Part shown: one piece after another, positions 601-64,000 of the stretch
Layout: every line of letters starts with the position of its first letter
Position numbering within the stretch: the stretch's first letter is position 1
NCBI GenBank assembly: GCA_033875325.1
Contig: JANRKA010000071.1
Span: 73,371-137,370, forward strand
DNA from: Elusimicrobiota bacterium
Lineage (GTDB): Bacteria > Elusimicrobiota > Elusimicrobia > UBA1565 > UBA9628
Length of the DNA stretch: 64,000 bases
Reading direction: 5' to 3'
The notes under the pieces: model-generated
Told to the model about the DNA's origin: nothing
Database searches by the model: none
Seen by the model: only the letters and a program-made list of their open reading frames with translations
Program-made: the position numbers and the translations under genes

Positions 601-1005
601 TCAGGACGTCAGGTCCGGATAATGCTTGAAGCCGTCCTGGCGCAGCCGGAGGTAGAGGGGGAAGGCGTAGTCGTGGATCTCGAGAGTACGCGCATTCTGT
701 AGCCTGCGCATCTTCCGTGCGTCGAGGCCGAGTTCCGCGATGGCTGCGTCGATCTGCGCGAAGAACTGGAGGGCCGTCATGCGGCGCAGTTTGGCGCTGG
801 CGCGCACGTCCAGGTACTTTTCGTTCAACTCGACTCGGCTGTAAATCCTGCGGTATAGCCCGCCCGGGAGGCGGCAGTGGAAGTTGTTCAGGAAAGGGCA
901 TAGCCGCTGGCCTTTCGTGCGCCTCGCGTGCGCCGCCATCTCGCGCTCGACCTTGCGCCGAATCCCGTCCTCCTCGCTTCTCATCGTCGGGAAGTCGTGG
1001 CACAA
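601..1005 (-). CDS. hypothetical protein (no family recognised)
   Basis: Track ORF of 134 aa with coding-like composition, divergent from the promoter region at 1006-1067. The true start may be the internal MRSEED Met. Confidence 0.4.
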   Translation of the reverse strand: MCHDFPTMRSEEDGIRRKVEREMAAHARRTKGQRLCPFLNNFHCRLPGGLYRRIYSRVELNEKYLDVRASAKLRRMTALQFFAQIDAAIAELGLDARKMRRLQNARTLEIHDYAFPLYLRLRQDGFKHYPDLTS

Positions 1006-1024
1006 GTGCCCATATGACAGGGAT

Positions 1025-1053
1025 TTGACAAATATTCGCGCGCGTGTTACAGT
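1025..1053 (+). promoter_or_regulatory. sigma-70-type promoter, TTGACA - 17 nt - TACAGT
   Basis: TTGACA at 1025-1030 and TACAGT at 1048-1053, read directly. The regulator ATG at 1068 lies only about 15 nt after the -10 element. Confidence 0.5.
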
Positions 1054-1067
1054 CCATTCAACCCCTC

Positions 1068-2255
1068 ATGGCTACGATTCTTGTCATCGACGACGAAGGC
1101 GGATACGGCGCGTTCCTCGAGCGCTATCTTTCCGTCCTCGGCTTCAGCGCCTTCGTCGTGAAGAAAGGCGACCAGGGGCTGGAGTTCTCGAAGACTGTCC
1201 GTCCTGACCTCATCTTGTTGGACTGGTGCCTCAAGGAAGGCTTCACCGCGGAGGAGACTCTGCGTCTCTTCCGAAGCCAGCCCGCGACGCAGGACGTCCC
1301 GGTGGTAGTCATCTCGGGCAACAAGGAAGAGCCCGAGGACGAAGCGCGGGCGCGCCAGGCTGGCGCGTGCCAGTTCATCTCGAAGAACGAGATTTCCGAC
1401 TCGGTCAAGGACCAGACCGTGTTCAAGCGGAGACTGGACGCCCTCATCCTCGGCCGCGTCGCCTCTCCGCCGCGGAATCGGCGCTCGATCAAGAAGGTCG
1501 CGCTTCCGCGTCCTGTCGGTCGAGTCCTACTCGTCGATGACGATCCCGAGATTCGGAACATGATAGCGCTCTTCCTTCGCGACAAGGGTTACAGCGTGCT
1601 GCAGGCTGATACGGCCTCACTCGGCCTGTCCAGGGCGCAAGCCGAGGCGCCGGATCTCATCGTCCTCGACCTCGGTCTGCCGGACATGGACGGGTTGGAG
1701 GTCTGCTCGCGGCTCAAGACGAGCTCGAAGACGCGGCCGATTCCCGTCCTCATCCTCACGGCCCGCGTCTCGCGGCAGTCTCAGCTGCTCGCCGTCGAGT
1801 ACATGGCCGACCATTTCCTCCCGAAGCCGCTGCCCGACCTGGAGGAGTTCCACGGCTGGGTGACCGCGCTGATGCGGCGCCGTTCGCACGCCGCGGACGA
1901 CCGGGAGCTCCTGCGCGTCGGCGACCGGCTCGTGGTGGACGTCGCGGCCCATACGGTGACGGCCGATGAACGGCAGATCGACGATCTCCCCGCGATCTTG
2001 TTCCAACTGCTGTGCGAGCTCGCTCGCCGCCCCGGCGAGGTTCTCAGCCGGGACTATCTGTTGATGAAGATCTGGCACAACTCCGTGCGTCCCCACCAGG
2101 TCGTCACGGCCGTCAATCGGCTCAAGAAGCGGATAGGCTCGCCGCTCGTGGACTGGCTGCAGGCCGTCCCCGGCGACGGCTACCGGCTCATACCGACGGG
2201 AGTCCCTCTCCGGCCCGTCCGTGTCGAGCCCCCGACTCCTTCCGAGAACGGCTAA
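1068..2255 (+). CDS. OmpR/PhoB-family response regulator with two tandem receiver domains and a winged-helix output domain
   Basis: In the frame of track ORF 1044..2255, starting at the ATG MATILVIDDEG. Second receiver VLLVDDDPEIRNMIALFL...DLIVLDLGLPDMDGLEV...PVLILTAR. C-terminal trans_reg_C-like ...LFQLLCELARRPGEVLSRDYLLMKIW...VNRLKKRIG...GYRLI. Confidence 0.85.
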   Translation: MATILVIDDEGGYGAFLERYLSVLGFSAFVVKKGDQGLEFSKTVRPDLILLDWCLKEGFTAEETLRLFRSQPATQDVPVVVISGNKEEPEDEARARQAGACQFISKNEISDSVKDQTVFKRRLDALILGRVASPPRNRRSIKKVALPRPVGRVLLVDDDPEIRNMIALFLRDKGYSVLQADTASLGLSRAQAEAPDLIVLDLGLPDMDGLEVCSRLKTSSKTRPIPVLILTARVSRQSQLLAVEYMADHFLPKPLPDLEEFHGWVTALMRRRSHAADDRELLRVGDRLVVDVAAHTVTADERQIDDLPAILFQLLCELARRPGEVLSRDYLLMKIWHNSVRPHQVVTAVNRLKKRIGSPLVDWLQAVPGDGYRLIPTGVPLRPVRVEPPTPSENG

Positions 2256-50273: not shown

Positions 50274-51476
50274 TCAAGATTCTGTGGATTTGCCGTGGAT
50301 TCGTGCGACTTCTTCTCGGACGCGTATGAACGCGACGCGTTCTTGCTCCAGGCGGATATCCTGTCCCCAGCGGTCGTCTCGTAAGGCGAGGAAGAGCGCC
50401 CCTTCATCGGCGGTCAATCGCTCCAGATTCTTGGTGAAGCGCTGGCCGGCCTCTTCACGTCCCCAGAGACTTTTATGGGCCAGCAGCGTCGTTTCGTCCA
50501 TTAAAAAGGATCGCGCGCCCGGAAGGATTTCTCTGAGCTGGCTGAGGATGGCGAAGCCGTGCGTGTCGATGTCTCCCCAGTAGTAGACCGCCGCTCCGCG
50601 CAGCCACGGGATGTCGGCTAACGAGCTCGCCCCGTAACCAAGGCCGAAGATGACCAAGGAATCTGGGCAATCGGGGAAGGACAAGCCGTTCATTTTGTTC
50701 TCGGTGATGAAGACCCGCTTCGGCCGTACCGATAATCCCCGCAGTTCGGGAAGCGGCACGGAAATGTCGGTCGCTCCCGCCAGAGCCCCGTCGAGCATGC
50801 GAAAACGGATCAGCGCGGGCTCGACCTTCAATCCGAAGCGCTCCTCGAAGCCGTGATTGGAAAGAGCGCGGCTCGTCGCCGTCACGACCTCCGCCGGCAG
50901 AACCGCCGTGAGAAGGTCGGCGATGATCGCGCGGCGGGTTTCAATGAACTTGGTGTCTACCCCAGGAATATCGAGCTGGCGCAGATAAAGGTCCGGCCTC
51001 GGCTTGTCCTGGAAGTAGCGGCAGACGGCGAGCAGCCTATCCCAATCGTCGACATGGTCCAGCACGAGGGCGGGACGGCGGCACAGAAGGGGCTTGAACT
51101 CGGGACGCTCCGCCAGGATGCGGGCGGCGAGTTGGCAGAATTTCTCATGCTGGCGACGTTTGCCGGTCAGGTGCAGATAATCGTCGAGTTCTGAGACGAT
51201 GACCTTTCGAGGAAAGGCTTGGTTCCCGAGGCGCCGGTGGTTGATGTGCGCGTACTCAAGGGCATAGCCTCTGCCTGCCGCTGTCTTGGCGCTCTTCTCC
51301 AACTGCTGGATCGCGGCGCGCAGGCCGGGGAACCCGTCGGCCAGCTCCTGAGCCGTCGGCTTGGGAATACCGATCTCCCACGGGAACAACGAAGCGCCTT
51401 CCAAGTGCGCGCGCTGGACGCGTTGCGTCTCCCAGAGCTTGAGCGCCCTGGAGCGGATCTCGTCGGGCGAGATCAT
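50274..51476 (-). CDS. jetD: Wadjet JetD (DUF3322/DUF2220, Toprim-like nuclease subunit)
   Basis: 400 aa. VFITENKMNGLSFP and YYWGDIDTHGFAILSQLR (Toprim DxD). Last gene of a jetABCD-ordered operon. Confidence 0.85.
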   Translation of the reverse strand: MISPDEIRSRALKLWETQRVQRAHLEGASLFPWEIGIPKPTAQELADGFPGLRAAIQQLEKSAKTAAGRGYALEYAHINHRRLGNQAFPRKVIVSELDDYLHLTGKRRQHEKFCQLAARILAERPEFKPLLCRRPALVLDHVDDWDRLLAVCRYFQDKPRPDLYLRQLDIPGVDTKFIETRRAIIADLLTAVLPAEVVTATSRALSNHGFEERFGLKVEPALIRFRMLDGALAGATDISVPLPELRGLSVRPKRVFITENKMNGLSFPDCPDSLVIFGLGYGASSLADIPWLRGAAVYYWGDIDTHGFAILSQLREILPGARSFLMDETTLLAHKSLWGREEAGQRFTKNLERLTADEGALFLALRDDRWGQDIRLEQERVAFIRVREEVARIHGKSTES

Positions 51477-54400
51477 GAGGCCGCAGCCTGCTGCTTCTTG
51501 CGCGCCCGGTCGGCGTGGAACTGCTCGATGGTGAGGTTCTTGAGCATGGAGCAGTTCTGGTTGGGGTTGTGGACGAAGTGGACCGAACGGACGTAGTCCT
51601 CGATCACGTGGATCTTCTGCAGCGGCGTGACGACGAGGAGCTGGATGTTGAGCTGGTTGAACAAGGTCAGGGCGTAACGGGCCGACTCGTCGGAGCCGCG
51701 GCCGAACGCCTCATCGATCATCACGAAGCGGAAGGCCTTGGAGCGCTTTTCGGCCCAGCCGAGGCCGAACTGGTAGGCGAGCGCCGAGGCCAGGATCGTG
51801 TAGGCCAGCTTCTCCTTCTGGCCGCCGGACTTGCCCGCGGAGTCCGAGTAGGTCTCCTTGATCTCGTTGTTCTCGCGCCAGCGCTCATAGACGATGAACT
51901 CGAACCAGTTGCGCACGTCGGTGACCTTCTTGGCCCACTTCTGGTCGATCTCCGTCATCCCCTCGCGGCCGTTGAAGCGGTCGATGACGGCCTTGACCTG
52001 GAGAAACTTGTGCTCGGTGTAGAACTCGGCGTCCTGGCCGGAGAGCGTCCCACCCAGGCACTCCTTGAGCTGCTTCTGGAACTCGCGGATCTCCGCGTCA
52101 TGGGACGCGTCGGCGACCAGCTCGATGAAGGTCCCGGAGTTGTAGTCGATGTCGCGCAGGGACTGGTTGATGCGGGCGATCTTCTCGCGGGTCTCCTGAC
52201 ACTCCTTGTCGAGTTGGTTCTGGAAGAGGGCGATGTCGTTGATCGTGCCCTCGTTGAGGAGTTGCTTGAACCGCTCCTCGTGGCGCGGCAGGTCCTCGCC
52301 GCGAAGCCGCGCCAACATGCTCCGGAACTCGTCGGCAGACTCGAGGCTGGCGTCGACGTCGCGGGTCTCGACGGGGTGCTCCGTCTTGTATTCGTGCATC
52401 TGACGCAGGATCTTCTCTCGCAGACGGTCGAGCTTTTTGTCCTCCTCATCGATTCTGGCCTGAAGCCACTCACGGGTATCCGTCTGGCAGTTGTCGCAGC
52501 TCTCAACCGTGAGCTTGCGGTCGGGGGGCGTTTCGGCGCGCAGCTCCTCCAGCCTCGGGAAGAGCCGCGCCTTGTCGGCCTCGGCGACCTTCGCCAGCTC
52601 CCCGGCCGCGTCGCTCTTGAGCTCCTCCGCGGCGGTGAGCTTGTCGTTGACCGAGCCCTGTTCCTGAAGAAGTGCCGTTTTGGCGGCGTCGGCCGCCTCG
52701 TGCTTCTGTTCCGACTCCTTGAGCGAAGCCTGGAGCGTCCGCAGGACGTCGGACTCGGCGGTTATCCGCTTCCGCTCCTCCTCGAGGTCGGCGATGCGGC
52801 GGGCGGAGCTCTTCCAGTCGATGTCCTGGAACTCGGTGACGCCAAGCAGGTCGCGGGCGGCGTCCCGTTTGGCGTCAAGCTCGGCGATCCGGTCCAGGAC
52901 CTTCTTGATCGCGGCCATGTCCTTCTTCTCGTCCTCGACCAACGACCCGAGTTGCTGCTCTAGCGCCAGGACTTTGTCCTCGTTGCTCCAGCCGAGCACG
53001 TAGCGGGACCGGTCGTCGATGTCGAATCGGTCGTCCTTCTCGTGCCTCCCTCCGGGCGTCTTGGCTTGGCCTTGTCGGGTGAGGGCCTTGGTCTCGCGCT
53101 GGAACTCATCGAGACTCTCGCAGCAGAGGTAGTCGAAGCGCTTTATGAGCTCCTGTTCCAGCCACGGCTGGAAGGCGCTATCGGGTTTGACCTGGAGCTT
53201 GTGCGCCAGATGGCGTGCATCGGAAGGGCGGCCGGAGGCGCCTGCCTCCTGGCGCACGCGGATATAGACGAGACGACCGCGCAGGTTGGTCTTGTCGACG
53301 AAGCGAGCGACGGAGGCGTAGGAGTCCTCCGGGACGAGCAGGCTCAGTCCGAAGTTGTGAAGCACCCGCTCTAGGGCGCCTTCCCACGCCGCGTGCTCGG
53401 GGCGGACTTGCAGCAGTTCGCCGACGAACGGCAGCGACTCCTCGGGGATGTCTAGAGACCGGGAGATCAGCAGCCGTATCTGCAGGCTATGGGAGGGGAT
53501 ATTCGACGCGCGTCCTTGCAGGGACTCAAGTTCCGCCTGAATTCCTTGGGCGCGCTTCTCGCGGTCGCGATGCTCGATCGCCAGATCGACGCGCCGCTCC
53601 TCCTCACGCTTCTTCTCGGCTTCGGTCTCGGCGCGAACGGACTGCGCCTTGGCCTTGTTCGCGTGGAAGGACTCGATGGCGTCGGCGGAGCGAAGGCCGA
53701 GCTTCTTGCAGTGTCCGGCGTACGCCTGCGCGCGTTGCTCGCGCGCGAACCGCTCGACCTCGCTTCGCTCGATCTCTCGGGCGATCGTCTCCAGCCGACC
53801 GCCGCCCTGCGCGCGGATGCTTTCGCGCAGTTCCTCCATCTTCCGGGCGAGCCCATCGAGCTCCTCGCGTTGCTGCGCGAGGCGGTCGGCGAGCTTGCCC
53901 TTCTCGACGCCCAGGCGGCGCAGACGCTCATCGAGAAGCTCGATCTTCTTGGCGGCGAAGAAGGCATGCAGGGCGCCGCGGCACTGGATGAACTCCTCCC
54001 GGCCTTTCGAGACCTCCTGCCAGCGGTCGCAATCCGCCACCAGAGGTCCGAGCCGCTGGATTTGGTCCTTGGCCTTCTTCACCGCGGCGTGGGCGCGGTT
54101 GAGGTTGTCGAAGTTCTGGCGGATATCGGCCAGGCGCTCCTCGATTTGCGGCTTTTCCAGCATGTGTTCGCGCACGAAGGCCGTGAGGTTCTCGACGGTC
54201 TTGAGAGCGACGGTCTGGTAGAAGAGATCGAGCGCCTGATCGCTACGGATGTCCATGCGTCGGCGGAACTCGCGGGCATATTGGACGTAGGAGTCGAACA
54301 GATGGATGTCGGCCTCCTTTCGGAGGCGCTTCTTGAGGCCGGCGATCTCAGGGCCGAAGTTGCTGAAGTGCTCGGCGATCGTCAGGGGCCGGTCGGCGAT

Positions 54401-54832
54401 CACGAAGAGCTTGTCGGGCTGGGCGTTGTCGCCCTTGGTCCAGAACACCTGCGCCAGCGTCACGCCCTGGTCGTAGCCGTCGTTGTGGAAATAGCCGAGG
54501 ATGACGCTGTAGCTGGCGCCGGAGCGCAGCGAGACGACCTTCGCCGCCGAGCGCGTTCGGTCCTCCTTGAAGTCGCCGCGCACGTACGAGAGCAGGTCGC
54601 GCTCCGAGCGCTCCGCTCCGGCGGCGCGATTGTAGACGATGCGGTGTGAGGGCACCAGGAGCGTCGTCAGGGCGTCGACCAGCGAGGACTTGCCCGAGCC
54701 GATGTCGCCGGTCAGGAACGAGTTGTGGCCCAGCGGCTCGATCCTCCATACCTTCTTGTCGAAGGTGCCCCAATTGAGGACCTCGAAGCGGTGGAGGCGG
54801 AAGCCGGAGAGCTCAGTCCGCTCGGTTTCCAT
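51473..54832 (-). CDS. jetC: Wadjet JetC (SMC-like ATPase)
   Basis: Start METERTELSGFRLHRFEVLNWGTFDKKVW. Walker A GDIGSGKSSLVDAL. About 700 aa of coiled coil. C-terminal FRFVMIDEAFGRGSDE. The track ORF extends to 55015 inside jetB. Confidence 0.9.
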   Translation of the reverse strand: METERTELSGFRLHRFEVLNWGTFDKKVWRIEPLGHNSFLTGDIGSGKSSLVDALTTLLVPSHRIVYNRAAGAERSERDLLSYVRGDFKEDRTRSAAKVVSLRSGASYSVILGYFHNDGYDQGVTLAQVFWTKGDNAQPDKLFVIADRPLTIAEHFSNFGPEIAGLKKRLRKEADIHLFDSYVQYAREFRRRMDIRSDQALDLFYQTVALKTVENLTAFVREHMLEKPQIEERLADIRQNFDNLNRAHAAVKKAKDQIQRLGPLVADCDRWQEVSKGREEFIQCRGALHAFFAAKKIELLDERLRRLGVEKGKLADRLAQQREELDGLARKMEELRESIRAQGGGRLETIAREIERSEVERFAREQRAQAYAGHCKKLGLRSADAIESFHANKAKAQSVRAETEAEKKREEERRVDLAIEHRDREKRAQGIQAELESLQGRASNIPSHSLQIRLLISRSLDIPEESLPFVGELLQVRPEHAAWEGALERVLHNFGLSLLVPEDSYASVARFVDKTNLRGRLVYIRVRQEAGASGRPSDARHLAHKLQVKPDSAFQPWLEQELIKRFDYLCCESLDEFQRETKALTRQGQAKTPGGRHEKDDRFDIDDRSRYVLGWSNEDKVLALEQQLGSLVEDEKKDMAAIKKVLDRIAELDAKRDAARDLLGVTEFQDIDWKSSARRIADLEEERKRITAESDVLRTLQASLKESEQKHEAADAAKTALLQEQGSVNDKLTAAEELKSDAAGELAKVAEADKARLFPRLEELRAETPPDRKLTVESCDNCQTDTREWLQARIDEEDKKLDRLREKILRQMHEYKTEHPVETRDVDASLESADEFRSMLARLRGEDLPRHEERFKQLLNEGTINDIALFQNQLDKECQETREKIARINQSLRDIDYNSGTFIELVADASHDAEIREFQKQLKECLGGTLSGQDAEFYTEHKFLQVKAVIDRFNGREGMTEIDQKWAKKVTDVRNWFEFIVYERWRENNEIKETYSDSAGKSGGQKEKLAYTILASALAYQFGLGWAEKRSKAFRFVMIDEAFGRGSDESARYALTLFNQLNIQLLVVTPLQKIHVIEDYVRSVHFVHNPNQNCSMLKNLTIEQFHADRARKKQQAAAS

Positions 54833-55418
54833 GTTCCTGGTAGGCCTTGATGGCCTCGTCGAGGTTCTGCAGCCAGTCGGCCGTCGCCAGCGCCTTGAGG
54901 ATCGGCCGCACTTCGTAGGCCGGCGGGTTGGACTCCAGAGGCTTGAGCACCTCCATCGCCACCGCCTTGTTGATCTGGGCGTCGATCTGCTGCTCGGTGA
55001 AGGCTTCGTTGGCACGTTGGGGGAAGAAGACCTTCATCATCTCGACGATCTGCTCGTGCGTCAGGACGACGCGGTTGCCCGCGCCGCTGCCGCCGGCGTC
55101 GGCCTCGACCATTCTCTTGCGCAGCAACACGCAGAGCACGCTCAACGCGTAGCCGAGCGGCCGTCGTTGGATGAGGCGCGGGATGCCGGAATCATCGTCC
55201 AGCGGCGCTTGTCTCAGGTAGGCGAAGCCCTCGGCCTGATCGATCATCAGGTCCAGGCCGACCATCTTGAAATAGTCCAGCACCTGGGCTTCGAGTGCCT
55301 CCAGGTCATGCCAGACCTGCGGATGCTGGTCGCGGTAAAGCACGCCCTTGAGCAGGTGGACGAGGATGGGGGGCAGCTTCGGCGCCCGCGAGGCCGGCTC
55401 GGTCGCTTTCTCAGGCAT
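54813..55418 (-). CDS. jetB: Wadjet JetB (DUF4194)
   Basis: 201 aa. LVHLLKGVLYRDQHPQVWHDLEALEAQVLDYFKMVGLDLMIDQAEGFAYLRQ. Confidence 0.75.
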   Translation of the reverse strand: MPEKATEPASRAPKLPPILVHLLKGVLYRDQHPQVWHDLEALEAQVLDYFKMVGLDLMIDQAEGFAYLRQAPLDDDSGIPRLIQRRPLGYALSVLCVLLRKRMVEADAGGSGAGNRVVLTHEQIVEMMKVFFPQRANEAFTEQQIDAQINKAVAMEVLKPLESNPPAYEVRPILKALATADWLQNLDEAIKAYQEHGNRAD

Positions 55419-56868
55419 CTTGGGCCACGCGCTCCCGGACGAAGATGACGCGCGGGATGGTCGCGCGCTTCTCTGTTCCCGCTGCGTCCAGCCACGAGAC
55501 GCCGTAGCGCGCCTCCTGCTCGATGATCGCCGTGCCGTCCTTGGCGGCGATGTTCAGATAGGTCAAGAGCTCTGCCAAGCCCTTCTCCAGCGGATGACGC
55601 TCGCAGATCTCCTGGAGCGTCACTTGCGAGGCTCCATCGAGCTCCTGCTCGATGCGCCGGCGCAGTTCCCGCTCGTCAACGAAATGGACGTTGTAGAGGG
55701 CGTCGCTCTCGAAGTCCGCCACGCCTTCATCCACCTGCACCTGCTCCAGCAGGGCCTTCTTGTTCTTCGCCGGGTCGAACAGGCCGCGGGCCATCGTGAG
55801 GTCCCAGTTGGGGCGCACGTCATCGAGTGCGGCGAATTGGCCGTCGCCGGGAATCCGGCCGAGCTCGACGGCTCGCTTCTCGATGCTTCGGATGAGCTCC
55901 ATGATGCGCCTGTTCTCTAGCCAAGCGCGCCCCTCGATGAAGCGGCGGAGACTGTCCGTGAGCGAGCCGGTCGTCTTGTTGATCTTCTCGCCGGACTCCA
56001 TCAGGCGGTATTTGAGGCGGACCAGCAGGTCGTCCGGCCCGAGCGCCTTCACGTCCTCGAGCGCCGCCAGCTTGGCCGCCATCAGCTGGAGTTCCTGCTG
56101 ACGGTCCGGAGACATCAGGAACTCCCAGAAGGCCTTGAAGCTTCGGCCCTCGTCCGAGGAGGTGATCGTACTCTCCTCGCCGAAGATCTCGTCGAGCAGT
56201 TGTCCTTTGCTTTTCTCGCTCGTGGCGATCTTCTCGCGCGTGCGTCGGTCGAGGTGGCGGAAGTTCTCCTCGACCTGGCGGAAGTCGGCGAGGAGCCTTC
56301 GGGCCGTGTCCTCGACCTGGAGATACTGCTCCTTGATGCGCGTCGGGTCGTAGGAGACGACCTCGCCCCCTTTAAGCCTCCGGATCTCGTCATCGAGCTC
56401 GGCGCGGCGCTTTTCCAGCAGGGCGATGCGAGCCGCGCGGTCGGTTTCGGCGGCCTGCGTGACCTGACGCAAAAGCTCGAAGATCGTGAGCAGACGGGAC
56501 TCCGTGCCGACGAAGGGCCGCTGCTCCAGGCTGCGCAGCCACTCGATGGCCTTCTCCGTCGCCGGGGTCAGGTCGAACTCCGGCTCCTCGCCTTTGGTGG
56601 GGTAATACTTGCGCAGGTAGGCGTTCTCTCCGCGCGCCCAATCGTCCAGGTAGTCCTGCGCGGGCTTGGGGTAGCGGTTGTCGAGCGCCGCATTCAGGTG
56701 AAAGAGGTGGTCCTCGAGTCGGGCGGCCAACTGCGACTGCTTGATGGAGCGGGCGTTGGGCTTCAGGAAGGCTTGGTCCAGAAAGCTGATGATCAGCGGC
56801 GCCGTCTCGGCGTTAAGCAGCCGCCAGGCAGGGTGCTTCCGAAGACGCTCCAGATGTTCGTGATCCAT
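55411..56868 (-). CDS. jetA: Wadjet JetA (DUF3375)
   Basis: 485 aa. LRKHPAWRLLNAETAPLIISFLDQAF... First gene of the operon, overlapping jetB by 8 nt. Confidence 0.75.
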   Translation of the reverse strand: MDHEHLERLRKHPAWRLLNAETAPLIISFLDQAFLKPNARSIKQSQLAARLEDHLFHLNAALDNRYPKPAQDYLDDWARGENAYLRKYYPTKGEEPEFDLTPATEKAIEWLRSLEQRPFVGTESRLLTIFELLRQVTQAAETDRAARIALLEKRRAELDDEIRRLKGGEVVSYDPTRIKEQYLQVEDTARRLLADFRQVEENFRHLDRRTREKIATSEKSKGQLLDEIFGEESTITSSDEGRSFKAFWEFLMSPDRQQELQLMAAKLAALEDVKALGPDDLLVRLKYRLMESGEKINKTTGSLTDSLRRFIEGRAWLENRRIMELIRSIEKRAVELGRIPGDGQFAALDDVRPNWDLTMARGLFDPAKNKKALLEQVQVDEGVADFESDALYNVHFVDERELRRRIEQELDGASQVTLQEICERHPLEKGLAELLTYLNIAAKDGTAIIEQEARYGVSWLDAAGTEKRATIPRVIFVRERVAQDA

Positions 56869-57027
56869 GCGAGGGACTCAATCCAGGTGGGACCGAATGC
56901 GGTGATTTTACTATAACTACATGACATCGTCGACGGCCGGACATTTCCGCCTTGCAATGCGGACTCTGCCGAGCGGTTCACGCCCCCATGCCGTCGATGA
57001 CCCCCATAGAGTCAGGAGAAGGACGTT

Positions 57028-58728
57028 ATGCGCTTGTGTCACCTTAAGATTGAGCGGTTCCGCGGTATCAACTCGCTGGAATGGACGGTGAGGGGGGATT
57101 TCCTCTGCTTCATCGGCCCCGGCGACGCAACGAAGTCGACAATCTTGGACGCCATCGAGCTGGCGTTGTCCGCGCGTCGCGACCACGCTTTCGATGACTC
57201 CGACTTCTACGAGAGCGATACCTCCCAGCCCATCATCATCACCGCGACTCTCACGCAGTTGCCGGAGTCGATGATCTCCGACAGCAAGTTCGGCCGGGAC
57301 ATTCGTGGGTGGTCCGAGGAGTCCGGATTGCGAGACGAGCCCGGCGAACACGACGAGCCCGCGCTCTCGATCCGACTCACCGTGGACGCATCCCTCGAGC
57401 CCGAGTGGACCGTCTACAACGAGCGTACGGCCGAACCCCGCTACATGATGGCTCGCGACCGCCAGGCAATCGGGCTCATGCGATTAGGGGCTTCCATCGA
57501 TCGGCAGTTCACATGGAACGACGGCACCGTGCTGTCGCGTATCACCGGCAAAGTGGAGGAGCTTCCTCGTCTCCTGGCGGAAGCCGCGCGAGCCGCTCGG
57601 GGCAGCGTGGCCGAAGGAGCGATCAAAACCTTGGCCGACGCCGCCGCGCGAGTCCAGGAACTCGGCAAGAAAGTGGGCGTCGCGCCCCGTAAGATATTCG
57701 GCGCCGGCCTCGATCTGCGGCGTGTCAATGTGGGCTCCGGCGGGATGGCCCTGCACGACGGGAACATCCCGCTGCGCCGTGCCGGGCTTGGTACCCGGCG
57801 CCTCCTTGCGGTCGCGCTCCAGCGCGAGATCATCAAGGACGGTGGGATCACCCTCGTCGACGAGCTTGAGCATGGACTCGAACCGCATCGGCTGCGCTCC
57901 CTGATCGATGTACTCCGTCCCGTGGCCGGAGGCGAAGGCCAACCCTCCGCGGGACAGGTCCTCATGACCACGCACTCGCCGATTGCGGTCGTCGCCCTCG
58001 ACGCCGCCGCCCTAAAGGTCGTCAGGACCAAAGATGGGGCGACTCGTATCATCGACATCGATCCGAGCCTCCAGAATCTTGTTCGCGCCGCCCCTGAAGC
58101 CTTTTTGGGCCGCAGAATCATCGTTTGCGAGGGAAAGACCGAAGCGGGCTTGCTCATGGGGTTGGACCGTTCATGGGCGGACGCCGACGTTGCCTATACG
58201 TCGTTCGCCTATCGAGGCATCGTGCCGGTGGACGGCGGCGGGGCCCAGGCGCCGAGCCGCGCGGTCGCGCTCGCCCAGCTCGGCTACGACGTGGCCTTCC
58301 TCGGCGATTCGGACCGGCCGACGAATCCGACACCTGAGCAGATGACCGCCGCGGGTATCAAGGTCTGCATCTGGGACGGTGCCTCAAACACAGAGGATCG
58401 GTTCGCCCGCGATCTTCCGTGGGGCGCAGTCAAGTCGCTTGTCGCACTTGCCGCGCGCGAGCACGGTGGCGACCAGCGAATTATCGATATGATTAGAGGC
58501 CGAATCGCTGGTGGCCAGGTTCCCGCCGGCGCGCCGGCGACTTGGGTGGATGCCGAACCTCTGCGCGCCGCGATTGGCGCGGCGGCACACGCGAACGATT
58601 TGTTCAAGCGGATCGGGCTCGGTAAAGAGGTCGCGGCCGTCGTCGCTCCGTGCCTGGCGCAGATTCCCGCGACAGACCTCGCGGCCAAGCTAGCGTCTTT
58701 GCGCGCCTGGGTCACGTCCGATGCCTGA
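57028..58728 (+). CDS. gajA: Gabija GajA-like OLD-family ATPase-Toprim nuclease
   Basis: LKIERFRGINSLEW...FIGPGDATKSTILDAIELAL (ABC-type Walker A). LVDELEHGLEP. Toprim IIVCEGKTEAGLL ... FLGDSD. Confidence 0.8.
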   Translation: MRLCHLKIERFRGINSLEWTVRGDFLCFIGPGDATKSTILDAIELALSARRDHAFDDSDFYESDTSQPIIITATLTQLPESMISDSKFGRDIRGWSEESGLRDEPGEHDEPALSIRLTVDASLEPEWTVYNERTAEPRYMMARDRQAIGLMRLGASIDRQFTWNDGTVLSRITGKVEELPRLLAEAARAARGSVAEGAIKTLADAAARVQELGKKVGVAPRKIFGAGLDLRRVNVGSGGMALHDGNIPLRRAGLGTRRLLAVALQREIIKDGGITLVDELEHGLEPHRLRSLIDVLRPVAGGEGQPSAGQVLMTTHSPIAVVALDAAALKVVRTKDGATRIIDIDPSLQNLVRAAPEAFLGRRIIVCEGKTEAGLLMGLDRSWADADVAYTSFAYRGIVPVDGGGAQAPSRAVALAQLGYDVAFLGDSDRPTNPTPEQMTAAGIKVCIWDGASNTEDRFARDLPWGAVKSLVALAAREHGGDQRIIDMIRGRIAGGQVPAGAPATWVDAEPLRAAIGAAAHANDLFKRIGLGKEVAAVVAPCLAQIPATDLAAKLASLRAWVTSDA

Positions 58729-60145
58729 CGCGGAATCCCTGGCTCAGGCCCGTCGCGGCTACGTGGCGGCCGCCGCGGGCTGCGGTAAGACCCAGTTAAT
58801 CTCGGAGGCTGTCGCCTCTCATCCGACGGGGCGACAACTCGTCCTCACGCACACTCACGCGGGGGTGGACGCCCTACGGGCACGTCTCGAGCGGCTCGGT
58901 GCGAGGCTCGGCGGCTACTCGGTCCAGACCATCGCTGGTTTCTCGCTTTCGTACGCGTCCGCGTTCCCGCGCGCATCGTCTCTCGCCTCGGCCAAGCCAA
59001 AATCGCAGGACGAGTGGAAGAGCGTCTATTCTGGGCTCGCCGCGGTCCTCAAGCTGCCCGCCGTGCAGAAGGTCATCAAATCGTCCTACGCGGGATTGTA
59101 CGTCGACGAGTACCAAGACTGCACCAAGGCTCAGCATGGGCTCATGATGAGCGTGGCCGACTTACTACCGACTCGGGTCCTCGGCGACCCGCTCCAGGGC
59201 ATCTTCGACTTCGGCGACAACGACCCCGTCGATTGGGAAGCAGACGTGAAGGAGAAATTCCAGAGCGTCTGTTCTCCGGACGAGCCGCGGCGTTGGGCTG
59301 GCAAGAACGAGGTCTTAGGCGCTTGGCTGAAACAGGTTAGGACTTCGCTGATCAACGGGCAGCCAATCGACCTGAGGCATGCCGCCGTCCGCTTCGTGGA
59401 CACCTCGCGCTCGGTGAACCCGCTGCTGGCCGTCGGTGTTTGTCAGGAGGTCGCCTCCCAAAACCCCGACGACACGGTCGTCGCGATCCACCATCGTCCC
59501 CAGCAATGCCATTGGGTCGCGAACAAGCTGAACGGGCGCTACTCCTGCATCGAGCCCATCGAATCCGGCGAACTGCTCAAGTTCGCGGAGTCTTTAGCAT
59601 CAGGAAACGGCGCCCAGAAAGCGTCCGCGGCGATCGAGTTCGCGGGTAAGTGTATGACGGTCGCCGCACCGATGTTGCGGGGGGCCCAGAAAACAATCCT
59701 CAAAGGCGGTAAGCCCAGGAGCACTAAAGCCGAGCTCGCCGGGCCGCTGGCCGCGTTGGACAGGGTCGTCTCAACCAATGATCTCGTCAATGTCGCCGCG
59801 GCACTCGAAGTGATGAAAGAGATGCCCAAGGCCGTGATTTATCGCCGTGAACTGTTGGACGAGAGCTTGCGCGCGCTACGGGAATACGATCCCGCGAAGC
59901 ATCAGAGTGTGGCGGATGCTTTCTGGGCCGTGCGGAATCGAACGCGCCAGATGGGGCGCAGAATACCGCGCTGCAGCGTGGGGCGAACCCTCCTCATCAA
60001 AGGCCTCGAGTTCGACCATGCCGTTATTTTAGATGCCGACGCCTTGAGTGCGAAGGATCTCTATGTGGCTTTGACGAGAGGCTGCAAGAGCCTGACCATT
60101 CTAGGTAAATCACCCGTCGTGCAGTTCGCAGCAATCGCCGCTTAG
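58721..60145 (+). CDS. gajB: Gabija GajB-like UvrD-family helicase
   Basis: AAAGCGKTQLI (Walker A). LYVDEYQDC (motif II). VALTRGCKSLTIL (motif VI). Overlaps gajA by 8 nt. Confidence 0.8.
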   Translation: MPDAESLAQARRGYVAAAAGCGKTQLISEAVASHPTGRQLVLTHTHAGVDALRARLERLGARLGGYSVQTIAGFSLSYASAFPRASSLASAKPKSQDEWKSVYSGLAAVLKLPAVQKVIKSSYAGLYVDEYQDCTKAQHGLMMSVADLLPTRVLGDPLQGIFDFGDNDPVDWEADVKEKFQSVCSPDEPRRWAGKNEVLGAWLKQVRTSLINGQPIDLRHAAVRFVDTSRSVNPLLAVGVCQEVASQNPDDTVVAIHHRPQQCHWVANKLNGRYSCIEPIESGELLKFAESLASGNGAQKASAAIEFAGKCMTVAAPMLRGAQKTILKGGKPRSTKAELAGPLAALDRVVSTNDLVNVAAALEVMKEMPKAVIYRRELLDESLRALREYDPAKHQSVADAFWAVRNRTRQMGRRIPRCSVGRTLLIKGLEFDHAVILDADALSAKDLYVALTRGCKSLTILGKSPVVQFAAIAA

Positions 60146-60160
60146 CGCAGACGCCCACCC

Positions 60161-61264
60161 ATGACCGGAAAATCGTGTGTCTTCTGCGGCTCTTCGGACG
60201 ACATGACGGGCGAACACGTCTTCGGCGCCTGGCTTGGGCGCTTGGGATTACCTCATGAGCCGTCTCCGCATCGCGCTGGACGTCTCAATCGCAGCCCGCG
60301 AGACATGGGCGTCACCCGGCCCTTTAAGTCCACTGTCCGAGACGTCTGCGCCTCCTGCAATAACGGTTGGATGAGCGCGCTCGAAGCGGCCGCTGCGCGA
60401 GTCCTGCCTCCGCTCATACTTGATGGTCATGGAGAAATCGGGGCGAGCGACGGCTCGTTGATCGCCGCTTGGGCGCAAAAGACGGCGCTCGTCAGCATGC
60501 TGGTCTCCTCAGAAGGAGATCGAGCAGCCGGCTACGGCTTGCCCAGCACTGAGTATCGAGCGCTTTTCGCGGCGCGAGACGGAGCGGCGCCATTACCCGA
60601 CACAAGGGCCTGGATCGGGCGCTATGATGGTGAACGAGTCCGTGCTTCCGCTTGCGTGACGCCGATGGTCGTGAGAATCGACGGGGTGGCCGTCCCGGAG
60701 ACGCCGCAGGGCTATCTCGTCACGATCATCCTTGGCAAGTTGTTATTGCATCTTCTTCGGTTCACGTCGCCTCACCTGGCTATCGACGCCTCCGCTGGCG
60801 CTGAGTTCTCTGAGCTGTGGCCCGCCGTCGCGGGAACGGCGCGCCTAGGGAGCAAAGGAATCGACGACAAGAGGATAAACAAGGTCGAAAAGGGCGCCGC
60901 GTTACGCTCCCTCATGCCGGGCGTCTTGCTCGAAGCCTGGAAGCCAGCGACCGAGCTTCCTCAGAGCACGCTTCAGGATTCGATGGTGAAACTGCCGACG
61001 CCATGCGGGAAGCACTTCATCTTCTATCCCGCGAACCTCGCGCTGGCGGGCATGCGTGGGGTGTATCACGCGTTCCTCACCAACTGCGAATGCGGCAAGA
61101 GCTATCTCATCGTGACGGAAGGAGACGGAGCGCATTTCAAGCTCGAAGGGTCGCAAGAGGCAATCACGGATGCTTACGAGCGCGCGCCGGGGCACGAAAT
61201 CACGCTCGAAGACGAGAACGGGGTGTTCTTGTGCAAGCGCCTGGCTAAAGAATGGGGGAGTTAA
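60161..61264 (+). CDS. HNH (His-Me finger) nuclease-like N-terminus fused to an unrecognised ~290-aa domain
   Basis: CVFCGSSDDMTGEHVFGAWLG ... CASCNNGWMS fits CxxC...EH...CxxCN. Lies 15 nt downstream of gajB on the same strand. Confidence 0.5.
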   Translation: MTGKSCVFCGSSDDMTGEHVFGAWLGRLGLPHEPSPHRAGRLNRSPRDMGVTRPFKSTVRDVCASCNNGWMSALEAAAARVLPPLILDGHGEIGASDGSLIAAWAQKTALVSMLVSSEGDRAAGYGLPSTEYRALFAARDGAAPLPDTRAWIGRYDGERVRASACVTPMVVRIDGVAVPETPQGYLVTIILGKLLLHLLRFTSPHLAIDASAGAEFSELWPAVAGTARLGSKGIDDKRINKVEKGAALRSLMPGVLLEAWKPATELPQSTLQDSMVKLPTPCGKHFIFYPANLALAGMRGVYHAFLTNCECGKSYLIVTEGDGAHFKLEGSQEAITDAYERAPGHEITLEDENGVFLCKRLAKEWGS

Positions 61265-61273
61265 AGTCTCGGC

Positions 61274-61963
61274 CTAGGAGTTGGCGTCTTCTGGACTACG
61301 AAAGCGCAGAGACTTGATGGCGAGAACGCACTCGATCCAAGCGTCGAATACGGCTCGTGTTACGCTCGAATTGCTCATCTTGTCAGTGATGTAGCGGAGG
61401 TACTCCTCAAGCGTTCCCAGCGGCGGGAAGGCGGGGTCGCGCGTGATATCCTTGGCGAGATCTCCAGTCGGATCATCTCGATGTTGTTGGCCGAGCAGCC
61501 AGGCTCGGAGAGGAATGGGTTGAGCAATCGGCAAGCTGATGATTTCTCGGAGCTTGTCGCTGATCAGGTCCGAGACGACTCTGGCAGCAAGCTCTTCCTG
61601 TGGGGTCCTTTCGACCTCCGGTTGCTCCGTGCCCGTTCGGGCGTCAGCCATGGCGATCCAGAAGCGCTCGCCCGCTGAGCTGAGTGGCGAGTCTTTCATG
61701 TGGCTCAGCAACGCGAGTGCCGCCTCTCGCTCAAACCATTCGCTGCGGACCCGATGAGGAGTAAGCAATTCATGGATTGCCCGCTCGACTACCGGCCCCG
61801 CGTCGACCATCCCGAGAACAACATACTCTTCTGCCGAGCCGGTTTGCAGCTGAGCACGGCGCTTCTCAGCGTCTCGATTGGCGGTATAGCCGATCTTTAC
61901 CGGGCCCGTGTCTTTGGGTCCGATGAAGTAGACGACGCCATAGCTTTCGCTTTGAATTCCCAT
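61274..61963 (-). CDS. T5orf172 / MUG113 (GIY-YIG-like) domain protein
   Basis: YGVVYFIGPKDTGPVKIGYTANRDAEKRRAQLQTGS...ERAIHELLTPHRVRSEWFE. Its ATG shares one base with the stop of the upstream gene (TAATG). Confidence 0.65.
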   Translation of the reverse strand: MGIQSESYGVVYFIGPKDTGPVKIGYTANRDAEKRRAQLQTGSAEEYVVLGMVDAGPVVERAIHELLTPHRVRSEWFEREAALALLSHMKDSPLSSAGERFWIAMADARTGTEQPEVERTPQEELAARVVSDLISDKLREIISLPIAQPIPLRAWLLGQQHRDDPTGDLAKDITRDPAFPPLGTLEEYLRYITDKMSNSSVTRAVFDAWIECVLAIKSLRFRSPEDANS

Positions 61964-63642
61964 TAGGCGTTTCCTCGCGTTCCTTTCGTAGCCGCCGTCT
62001 TGATGCCCTCAAGGATATCGTGACATGCGACCCGGAGCCGTGATTGCTCAACTTCCGGCCATAGATGTTCAGGTCTAAAGTGAGCGCTGTCCGTCCGGCC
62101 TTTCACGATAACGTCCATGAGCTCAATAAATCGCTTTCGTGGAAGCGAGAAGTGTATCTGGAAGATTGACCATTCAGCGGAAACAAGGTCGCGCAAATCC
62201 TTGAGATACAAGAAATGGATGATTTCGCTCTGATCCATAACGTGCCTGTCGGCCATTCGCTTGGCGGCATCGTTGAATGCTTCGGCGGGCATCTTTTCTT
62301 TGATGAAACCTATCCACGCGTCCTTGAAGCGGGCCTGGGCTTCGTCGCGGATGATCTTGCGAAATGCCGTTTCGACTTTGCCGACGGTTTTGTGCGGATC
62401 TGGGCGACCACCAGCTGCATCCCATTCCTGAGCGTGTTTCTTGGCGTTGCCCAAGACGCCTGAAAACCACGCCTTCAATTGTCGCTTCACGTTTTCAAGA
62501 GAGAGCGTGGCGGTTTCGATGAAAAGTTTTTCCTGCGCAGTGAGTTCGAAATGGAGTGTTCCGATTCGTAGACGCTCGTTCTCAATCGTCTCATCGACCT
62601 CGCTGAGACGTTCTTTAACCCAATCGTCGTACATCCCGAGATCTTCGCCGAATTCTATTCGAATCAATTGAAGCAGAGGCTCTGAAAACGTTGGGCCGCC
62701 CAGTTGCTCAAGGCATGCGCCAATCCGCGCCTTCAAATTAACGATGAACCGCATTAAAGGATCGGGTGTGTAGCCGCCTTCCGCCGTTATGTAATGGGTT
62801 AAATACGCGCGGTACACTTCCCAATATTTTCCGAGGAGAAAGAAAAATCTGTTTCGTGACTTGTATTCGGGAAGTCCAGCGGGTGAAGGAATCTGGAAAT
62901 CGAAAATCATCACTTCGTGGAGTGCCTTTACGGCATCCTGCAAGGCCTTCGGGCAGAGCTCTTGAGCGCGCGCATGAGCCTCACTCTCCGAGCAACCTAA
63001 TTGTTTTTGGAGCGCGAGCATCGCGGTTAACATAGGGCCGAGTAGGGCAGCCATGTATTCATCGCTTTCTGGCGTTGCCTTAGCTCGTCGGAAATTTCCT
63101 AGCGCGTCCTCTTGCTTCGCGGAAGCAAGGGAACTTTCTAGCTCTTGCGTAAAGAGCTCTAATAGTTGAGTCGGCCCGGGCTTTGCTAAGTCCTGCGGAT
63201 ACATGCCGCCGTGGAGTTTCAAAGACCAGAGACCGCTTGCAGCGGTAAGCACCCAGGCGGAGTGCCCCGACGTCGTGAATCCTAATGTGTCTTGAGAGTC
63301 TGGCGCCTCCCTTTTTTCTTCAGCGGACCACTCTTCGAGCTGTGCGAGCCCGTGATGGGTGATCTTCATTTCGAAGTTCGCGTGGTAGAAAAACCATCGC
63401 TCCATTTCTGGGCCGGGTTCGAAATCGACGAACCCGCGTTTGTCGTCCCATTTATGCAGCGCGATAGCTTTCTGATCGAACAAGATTAGAATGGCGGCCT
63501 GTATGTCCTCGAATTCGAGCTTCCAGGTGTTGGAAAAATCAGGAATTCTGAAGGCTAGGAATCGCCCCTTGTTCCCCTGGCTCGCGAGGAGCTGAAGGAC
63601 TTTGTGTTTGGCGGCATTAATCTGCGGGGGCGTGGATGTCAT
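61963..63642 (-). CDS. large hypothetical protein with C-terminal Swt1-like HEPN domain
   Basis: 559 aa in a visibly lower-G+C stretch. C-terminus VETAFRKIIRDEA...LYLKDLRDLVSAEWSIFQ...FIELMDVIVKGRTDSAHF contains an R-x4-H HEPN motif. Confidence 0.55.
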   Translation of the reverse strand: MTSTPPQINAAKHKVLQLLASQGNKGRFLAFRIPDFSNTWKLEFEDIQAAILILFDQKAIALHKWDDKRGFVDFEPGPEMERWFFYHANFEMKITHHGLAQLEEWSAEEKREAPDSQDTLGFTTSGHSAWVLTAASGLWSLKLHGGMYPQDLAKPGPTQLLELFTQELESSLASAKQEDALGNFRRAKATPESDEYMAALLGPMLTAMLALQKQLGCSESEAHARAQELCPKALQDAVKALHEVMIFDFQIPSPAGLPEYKSRNRFFFLLGKYWEVYRAYLTHYITAEGGYTPDPLMRFIVNLKARIGACLEQLGGPTFSEPLLQLIRIEFGEDLGMYDDWVKERLSEVDETIENERLRIGTLHFELTAQEKLFIETATLSLENVKRQLKAWFSGVLGNAKKHAQEWDAAGGRPDPHKTVGKVETAFRKIIRDEAQARFKDAWIGFIKEKMPAEAFNDAAKRMADRHVMDQSEIIHFLYLKDLRDLVSAEWSIFQIHFSLPRKRFIELMDVIVKGRTDSAHFRPEHLWPEVEQSRLRVACHDILEGIKTAATKGTRGNA

Positions 63643-63740
63643 GGCTTTACGCGATGCGGCGTGCGCCTGGGGTAATTTTACTATAACCCCAGATACAGCC
63701 TTTCTGATGCGTTGAAGGCTTTACATTGGGTGGGGGCGGC

Positions 63741-64000
63741 ATGACTGACCAGGAATTCGTCGAAGACCGTCGCCGCGCTCTATCGGAATCCGTTGAGTAT
63801 TTCTCTGCGAAGAACAAGATCGAGCGGGAACTCTGGGTTTGCGTCGAGTTCCTGAAGAACCTGGGCGTACGCTTTGAGGATAAAGAAGCGCGGCCATGGA
63901 GCGACGAGCCTCCAGACGTCGTGTTTCGCGACGCTCGGTTCGAAATCAAGGAGATTCTAGACCCAGGCCGCCGCCGGCACGCCGAGTATAAGCTGGACTT
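63741..64000 (+). CDS. partial ORF (runs off the window) with PD-(D/E)XK-like motif
   Basis: Not in the supplied track. ATG 63741, with no stop to base 64000 when I read the codons. MTDQEFVEDRRRAL...PPDVVFRDARFEIKEIL fits D...E-x-K. Confidence 0.4.
   Translation, partial: MTDQEFVEDRRRALSESVEYFSAKNKIERELWVCVEFLKNLGVRFEDKEARPWSDEPPDVVFRDARFEIKEILDPGRRRHAEYKLD

Follow-up and report, generated by a model that had tools for sequence, protein, structure and literature searches.

The stretch of DNA analysed here (the window) comprises 64,000 nucleotides (nt) from an Elusimicrobiota bacterium (assembly GCA_033875325.1, contig JANRKA010000071.1, positions 73,371 to 137,370), and near its end two overlapping genes lie on the minus strand. 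The first (61963..63642; supported by its open reading frame, its full-length homologues, and its G+C content) encodes a 559-aa protein that we call HEPN-559. The second, directly downstream (61274..61963; supported by its open reading frame and Pfam matches), encodes a 229-aa protein with T5orf172 and YozE-SAM-like domains. The original prediction had proposed the two as a two-gene defence module. We find that HEPN-559 is a rare three-domain protein, made up of an N-terminal winged helix, a central helical domain, and a C-terminal HEPN domain, and that the T5orf172 gene is evolutionarily independent of it. As judged from sequence comparisons, no unit at this locus other than HEPN-559 is conserved, and HEPN-559 appears to travel alone between bacterial defence islands.

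Both reading frames have the positions and lengths predicted for them, and they share a TAATG, also as predicted: The minus strand reads ...GCCTAATGGGA... (that is, ...AACGCCTAATGGGAATT...), so that the stop codon TAA and the start codon ATG have one base in common. The T5orf172 gene has a Shine-Dalgarno-like GAGGA 7 nt upstream of its ATG. The count of 26 G+C given for positions 62161-62220 is exact; values as low as this occur in only six of the 1066 60-nt bins of the window, three of which are inside HEPN-559. The kilobase with the lowest G+C content in the window (62001-63000, 0.515) likewise falls here, as had been claimed. HEPN-559 has a G+C content of 0.525 (0.591 at third codon positions, GC3) and the T5orf172 gene 0.586, compared with 0.647 for the window as a whole. 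The neighbouring Wadjet and Gabija genes are at 0.62-0.65, with GC3 up to 0.88.

The C-terminal domain of HEPN-559 (aa 414-550; 61993..62403, minus strand) had been assigned to the Swt1-like HEPN domains on the basis of two motifs, HFLYLKDLRDLVSAEWSIF and VKGRTDSAH, both of which are read in the translation. HEPN-559 itself has no family match in Pfam, NCBIfam, or PHROG, and its sole PADLOC match, to the candidate family PDC-M34B, is weak (1.4e-4, aa 422-499). Support for the assignment is transitive. Relatives that the HEPN-559 family profile finds at 1e-25 to 1e-29 match positions 2-115 of PF18731, nearly the whole model, with a best E-value of 2.3e-14, and two of them exceed its gathering score of 27.5 (P0147 with 39.6 bits, 7.4e-10, which additionally matches Abi_2; and P0031 with 31.7 bits, 2.1e-7), several others being just under it. 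PDC-M34B is matched by 13 of 40 relatives, at best with 1.5e-34. When 22 C-terminal domains are aligned, some from proteins that have only the HEPN domain in common with HEPN-559, E424, R428, W443, W491, R516, and H521 are invariant; these comprise the helix-1 E..LR signature and the Rx4H motif. The stretch R516-TDSA-H521, whose codons occupy 62080..62097 on the minus strand and whose Arg and His, read from the sequence and conserved, are the predicted catalytic residues, is likewise invariant in a 23-sequence alignment. On this transitive profile evidence we accept the HEPN assignment, with the fold comparison not confirming it. The AlphaFold2 (AF2) model of aa 118-559 is all-helical, with a mean predicted local distance difference test (pLDDT) score of 88.7; scores are around 90, and 57-85 over the Rx4H loop. 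Hidden Markov model searches of PDB sequences, both with the family profile and with a HEPN-only profile, gave no match. We also considered R278-x4-H283, in the central domain, as a second HEPN motif and rejected it, as it is conserved only among the closest homologues.

Close relatives of HEPN-559 are few. Among 5.8 billion clustered proteins we found six, with 50%-99% identity, of which five are full length (P0001-P0004 and P0006) and one, P0005, is without the first ∼118 residues; a further homologue, at locus L015, is 88% identical. Additional scans yielded three relatives in 185,579 genomes, one in JGI metagenomes, and none in IMG/VR, and a second, word-indexed homologue search with a 23-sequence alignment as query added two fragments only. 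When 1.84 billion representatives were searched exhaustively by HMMER with the family profile, 245 proteins were returned, and these reveal three modules. The N-terminal module (aa 1-115) is also found in three other proteins with different C-termini (P0089, P0124, and P0136; a PDB sequence search with P0089 gave nothing significant). The middle module (aa ∼120-410) is carried without the C-terminal domain by 108 of the listed proteins, and the C-terminal module (aa ∼414-550) is attached to other N-termini in 17. The middle and C-terminal modules occur together in 21 proteins of ∼430-450 aa. The earlier statement that the first ∼400 residues match nothing recognizable therefore stands for Pfam only, since the region contains a winged helix (8-110) and a recurrent domain family (120-410).

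The winged helix (aa 8-110; 63313..63621, minus strand) is the only part of the full-length AF2 model (mean pLDDT 84.8) that Foldseek matches. Its modelled secondary structure is H-E-H-H-E-E, with pLDDT of about 86-92, and the best structural matches are PadR, MarR, ZitR, and SarX (probability 0.96-1.0 but E-values of 0.08-0.8). This domain is missing from P0005. The central domain (aa 120-410; 62413..63285, minus strand) is an all-alpha domain of ∼290 aa that has no match in Pfam, none by fold in PDB or BFVD, and none by sequence profile in PDB; ten large proteins containing it are nearly devoid of Pfam annotation. In 114 copies of the domain, P252, R265, Y273, W274, P293, R306, and E371 are conserved at 96%-100%. 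Cys249 (89%), His294 (74%), and Cys310 (76%) are common in the same set (window about 62713-62898), and as a trio they may form a metal site. HEPN-559 keeps only C310 and has Phe and Asp at 249 and 294, as do most close homologues.

What follows the central domain in other proteins is diverse: The tails form many unrelated clusters, and most tails have no Rx4-6H motif. These varied tails indicate that the central module is a conserved core to which exchangeable C-terminal domains are attached. We tentatively raise the idea, to which we give well under an even chance, that the central domain is an undescribed and widely spread module with at least a dozen unrelated tails besides the Swt1-like HEPN domain; it may define a new modular family of single-protein sensors or effectors, of which HEPN-559 would be the branch found in defence islands, armed with an RNase and bearing a winged helix.

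We next consider whether HEPN-559 and the T5orf172 gene belong together. They lie on the same strand, overlap by the TAATG, and have no terminator-like site between them, and they are probably co-transcribed in the window. Both proteins weakly match PADLOC candidate families, HEPN-559 as described above and the small protein PDC-S57 (2.4e-6); these matches are partial, and neither protein matches a named system in full. Such features would fit a true two-gene system, at least in this lineage, in which a HEPN RNase is paired with a DNase or DNA-binding partner, as the original prediction had it. The distribution of the genes speaks against this. Only the window and L015 contain the pair; at L015 the gene order is identical and identities are 88% for HEPN-559, 85% for the T5orf172 protein, 78% for a 367-aa protein, and 85% for a DUF1780 protein. 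Because L015 is syntenic with the window on both sides, the arrangement kept there reflects shared ancestry rather than an independent association, and its HEPN and T5orf172 genes do not overlap but are separated by 28 nt, with a separate AAGGAG ribosome-binding site. Across independent lineages the two genes do not co-occur. A tblastn search with the small protein against eight loci that carry HEPN-559 relatives (L001-L008) detected no T5orf172 homologue. Four of these, L001-L004, are the other close-homologue loci with readable downstream sequence, and there the HEPN gene is followed by a convergent HTH-like reading frame (L001), an unrelated 202-aa protein (L002), an unrelated 182-aa protein and then DUF4145 (L003), or a 400-nt gap and then convergent genes (L004). 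An all-against-all comparison of the neighbours at homologous loci found a single common gene, a 1182-aa HamB-like helicase at L001 and L004.

The loci of T5orf172 homologues give the same picture from the other side. P0157, which is 90% identical to the small protein, is encoded on a 560-kb contig in the order JetA-GajA-GajB-(319 aa)-T5orf172, as in the window, and this locus has neither a HEPN gene nor a DUF1780 gene; a 300-nt gap and a histidine-kinase gene lie upstream of the T5orf172 gene instead. Elsewhere the T5orf172 homologue follows other genes: an unrelated 326-aa protein at L009-L011, another unrelated protein at L012 and L013, and, amid arginine-biosynthesis genes, a 169-aa protein at L016. 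The HEPN gene is at none of the loci P0157, L009-L014, and L016. Together with the difference in G+C content between the two genes (0.525 vs. 0.586), these observations make a two-gene system unlikely in our estimation, and the T5orf172 gene does not form an evolutionarily conserved functional module with HEPN-559. Within a defence island, overlapping stop and start codons are not enough to establish a system, which may serve as a lesson for annotation.

The slot 5′ of the T5orf172 gene varies by lineage, being filled by HEPN-559, by the 326-aa protein, by another unknown gene, or by nothing. The 326-aa protein of L009 has no Pfam, PADLOC, or PDB-sequence match; from an unverified impression we presume an EVE-like N-terminus and a nuclease-like D...ExE motif. 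The T5orf172 gene marks a slot of exchanged cassettes. T5orf172 nuclease genes of phages are found at the boundaries of genetic exchange (PMC10448857), which the variable upstream slot recalls.

The identification of the small protein as a T5orf172/MUG113 protein is supported: The motif VKIGYT...SEWFERE is read in its translation, and it scores 36.7 bits against PF10544 and 34.2 bits against PF13455, where the curated cut-offs are 20 and 22.3 bits, respectively. The T5orf172 (6.1e-9) and MUG113 matches cover aa 9-79, and a YozE_SAM_like match (3.6e-6) follows at aa 155-209. We found 53 homologues with this T5orf172 plus YozE_SAM_like architecture, and in 25 homologues Y12, K23, R35, E60, and E75-W76-F77 are invariant, together with residues in the C-terminal domain. 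The PDC-S57 match is confined to profile positions 5-94 of 212, that is, to the T5orf172 domain, and a PDB sequence search gave nothing significant. T5orf172 is a subfamily of GIY-YIG, and in at least one member nuclease activity needs a conserved glutamate (PMC10448857). From its conserved residues the small protein is plausibly an active nuclease.

The prediction of a defence island is amply supported by very strong PADLOC matches. A complete Wadjet system, jetABCD, lies at 50274-56868 on the minus strand (JetD 4.9e-131, JetC E = 0, JetB 8e-65, and JetA 2.4e-182), followed on the plus strand by Gabija, gajAB, at 57028-60145 (GajA 2.2e-172 and GajB 1.4e-145). Close homologues of HEPN-559 adjoin known defence genes at five loci in four lineages (window/L015; L001/L004; L002; L003). 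The neighbours are Wadjet and Gabija in the window; DUF4145 at L003; and N6_N4 methyltransferase, ResIII, and TIR_2 genes at L002, where ResIII lies beyond the methyltransferase, the two of which suggest a type III restriction-modification system. At L001 (3544-9680) and L004 (1-2693) the HEPN homologue begins 18 nt and 6 nt, respectively, downstream of the 1182-aa helicase (PADLOC HamB, 1.5e-63) on the same strand. A 294-aa unannotated gene upstream of the helicase at L001 may be a divergent HamA, and the two loci may represent a variant of Hachiman to which a HEPN effector has been added.

This arrangement raises the question of whether HEPN-559 is an autonomous protein at all, or instead an accessory effector of a neighbouring helicase or defence system, Hachiman-like at L001 and L004 and Gabija in the window. 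It is common for HEPN domains to be embedded in restriction-modification and helicase operons (PMC3710099), and the homologue in the helicase setting of L004 is P0005, which has no winged helix. However, no helicase adjoins the HEPN gene at L002, L003, L005, or L015 or in the window, where GajB is 1.8 kb from HEPN-559, on the opposite strand and beyond two other genes; the distant relatives are solitary. We consider a purely accessory role quite improbable.

A further possibility is that HEPN-559 has no part in immunity and simply sits in a variable region, either as a regulator with a winged helix-turn-helix or as an RNase for housekeeping or stress that would control growth in the manner of a toxin. 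Its winged helix resembles MarR and PadR regulators, the central domain occurs in many proteins without a known defence link, and the distant relatives of ∼450 aa are encoded amid dehydrogenase, TetR, sugar-nucleotide, and symporter genes. Set against these points are the known defence genes beside the close homologues, the patchy and rare distribution with atypical G+C content, and the strict conservation of the catalytic Rx4H motif, and we hold a non-immune function to be improbable. No conserved neighbour that might act as an antitoxin was found among the homologous loci, and no neighbour had a nucleotidyltransferase or antitoxin Pfam match.

HEPN-559 was probably acquired horizontally, to judge by its G+C content of 0.525 in a window of 0.647 and by its presence at L015 and absence from the syntenic P0157 locus. 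We narrowly favour the reading that it is a defence-island gene, self-contained and gained by horizontal transfer, whose product is a candidate RNase acting as a single protein in abortive infection or stress, with the T5orf172 gene as a separate unit. Each chain has a single Rx4H motif, and, as in other HEPN RNases, a dimer or oligomer would build a composite active site. The winged helix and the ∼290-aa domain would keep the nuclease inactive and serve in sensing or regulation, perhaps responding to nucleic acid or to a phage protein. Once activated, HEPN-559 would cleave RNA of the cell or of the phage, perhaps in the anticodon loops of tRNA as HepS does, and growth would be arrested. The T5orf172 gene would encode a separate GIY-YIG-type nuclease with a YozE-like domain that happens to lie beside the slot into which the HEPN gene was inserted.

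Several observations weigh against this favoured reading. HEPN-559 gives no PF18731 match at E ≤ 1 and stays below every Pfam HEPN threshold, and a Foldseek search with the confident model of aa 118-559 retrieved no HEPN structure, all E-values in PDB and BFVD being >0.1. The family is very rare, with its six close relatives in 5.8 billion proteins and only three distant loci in 185,579 genomes, so few independent lineages stand behind the co-occurrence statistics. The housekeeping surroundings of the distant relatives mean that a role in defence does not extend to the family as a whole. The overlap of the HEPN-559 and T5orf172 genes, with no intervening terminator found, would permit a local functional link in the window. 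Finally, the sole evidence of expression is a 209-nt contig, 99% identical to positions 62972-63180 within HEPN-559, from one run that is only guessed to be RNA (X23, organism A), and this is at most a hint of transcription.

Two neighbouring genes merit description. The gene for the 367-aa protein (60161..61264, plus strand; noted as context) directly follows gajB and is convergent with the T5orf172 gene. It is convergent with a T5orf172 homologue also at L009 and L010 (69% identity), L011 (64%), and L015 (78%) and is thus a recurrent neighbour of T5orf172 in several, not all, lineages: At L012 and L013 its position is taken by a different protein that resembles PADLOC PD-T7-5. At L012 this convergent neighbour is a 285-aa protein (981-1838, minus strand) that matches PD-T7-5 with 2.2e-13 and PD-T7-1 with 3.6e-9, which places another gene of the defence type next to a T5orf172 homologue. 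The 367-aa protein has an N-terminal CxxC...GEHV motif and no Pfam, PADLOC, NCBIfam, or PDB match, and it resembles a PHROG of unknown function only weakly; it might belong with Gabija as an accessory or with T5orf172 as a partner. On the other side, and divergent from HEPN-559, is the 5′ part of a DUF1780 gene (63741..64000, plus strand), read from its translation and truncated by the end of the window. Its L015 orthologue, 85% identical and likewise divergent from the HEPN gene, carries PF08682 and has no PADLOC family match. We considered DUF1780 as the real partner of HEPN-559 and rejected it, since it is not at the other homologous loci. The two genes may have arrived together, as both are present at L015 and both are missing from the syntenic P0157 locus. 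A search of 60000-64000 for Rfam families found none, and the whole window has no tRNA gene, which leaves the locus with no noncoding RNA partner and no tRNA integration site found. The whole region is present at 100% of sampled words in eight 'synthetic metagenome' DNA runs, so the DNA may come from a cultured organism that belongs to a defined community.

Upstream of HEPN-559 we found a 16-nt element, GTTATAGTAAAATTAC (63672..63687, minus strand), which begins 45 nt before the start codon and ends, at its 3′ side, 29 nt before it. A second copy (56902-56917, minus strand) ends 33 nt upstream of the start codon of jetA. The element, of the form GTTATAGTAAAAT(C/T)AC, has exactly two copies in the 64 kb, vs. 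0.05 expected by chance; each copy is on the strand of its own gene, and the element is kept upstream of the L015 HEPN homologue (L015 1383-1395). From its position and conservation, it is likely a promoter -10 region (TATAGT) or an operator at HEPN-559, and a shared promoter or operator may tie the regulation of Wadjet and HEPN-559 together. A consensus promoter scan found nothing.

If HEPN-559 does protect against phages alone, its three-domain architecture would be a new entry among the few HEPN proteins that combine sensing with killing. A handle would also be gained on a ∼290-aa family of more than 100 diverged members that has neither annotation nor a structural relative. HEPN candidates are plentiful; it is the orphan domain with its interchangeable C-termini that deserves follow-up.

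Among the closest known systems is the bacterial Swt1/Abi2 clade (PF18731; Abi_2/AbiD/AbiF). HEPN-559 shares with it a C-terminal domain of ∼135 aa, the helix-1 E..LR signature, and the invariant Rx4H motif, and comparable fusions exist among its relatives, such as nSTAND2 plus HEPN in P0137 and RVT_1 plus HEPN in P0141. Bacterial HEPN domains of this clade are described as catalytically active, often fused to winged helix-turn-helix, AAA+, or STAND domains, and near restriction-modification systems (Anantharaman et al. 2013; PMC3710099). HEPN-559 differs from the clade in lying below Pfam detection and in the ∼290-aa, Pfam-less helical domain that precedes the HEPN domain. Neither sequence nor fold comparison brought up a matching solved structure. 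Homology links the HEPN domain to the profile of component B of the PADLOC candidate PDC-M34, although the match of HEPN-559 covers only profile positions 67-146 of 192. No PDC-M34A was found in the T5orf172 protein, the 367-aa protein, GajA, GajB, JetA, or the scanned neighbours of homologues, and no mention of PDC-M34 was found in the literature searched.

A functional parallel is offered by HepS of the Salmonella prophage Gifsy-1, a solo HEPN protein that senses a phage protein and cleaves tRNA in abortive infection (PMC13043305). HEPN-559 would resemble it, as proposed here, in that one HEPN polypeptide both senses and executes, with no conserved partner gene; the activity of HepS depends on its Rx4-6H motif (PMC13043305). 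HepS homologues are single-domain proteins of <250 aa, whereas HEPN-559 has two extra domains and 559 aa. HepS did not appear in PDB sequence searches and was not noticed among the best 50 Foldseek PDB matches.

The small protein can be likened to the T5orf172 homing-endonuclease-like genes of phage ICP1 (PMC10448857), with which it shares the T5orf172 domain, the conserved Tyr, Arg, and Glu (the last in EWFE), and a location at the boundary between variable gene cassettes. Unlike these, it is bacterial and chromosomal and carries a YozE-SAM-like C-terminal domain, and it differs from the PADLOC single-gene candidate PDC-S57 in covering only the N-terminal part of that profile. What the locus holds is therefore not a new two-gene system. 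HEPN-559 is of a known kind, a putative defence-type HEPN RNase, and what is new is the undescribed family of its central domain and its rare three-domain architecture.

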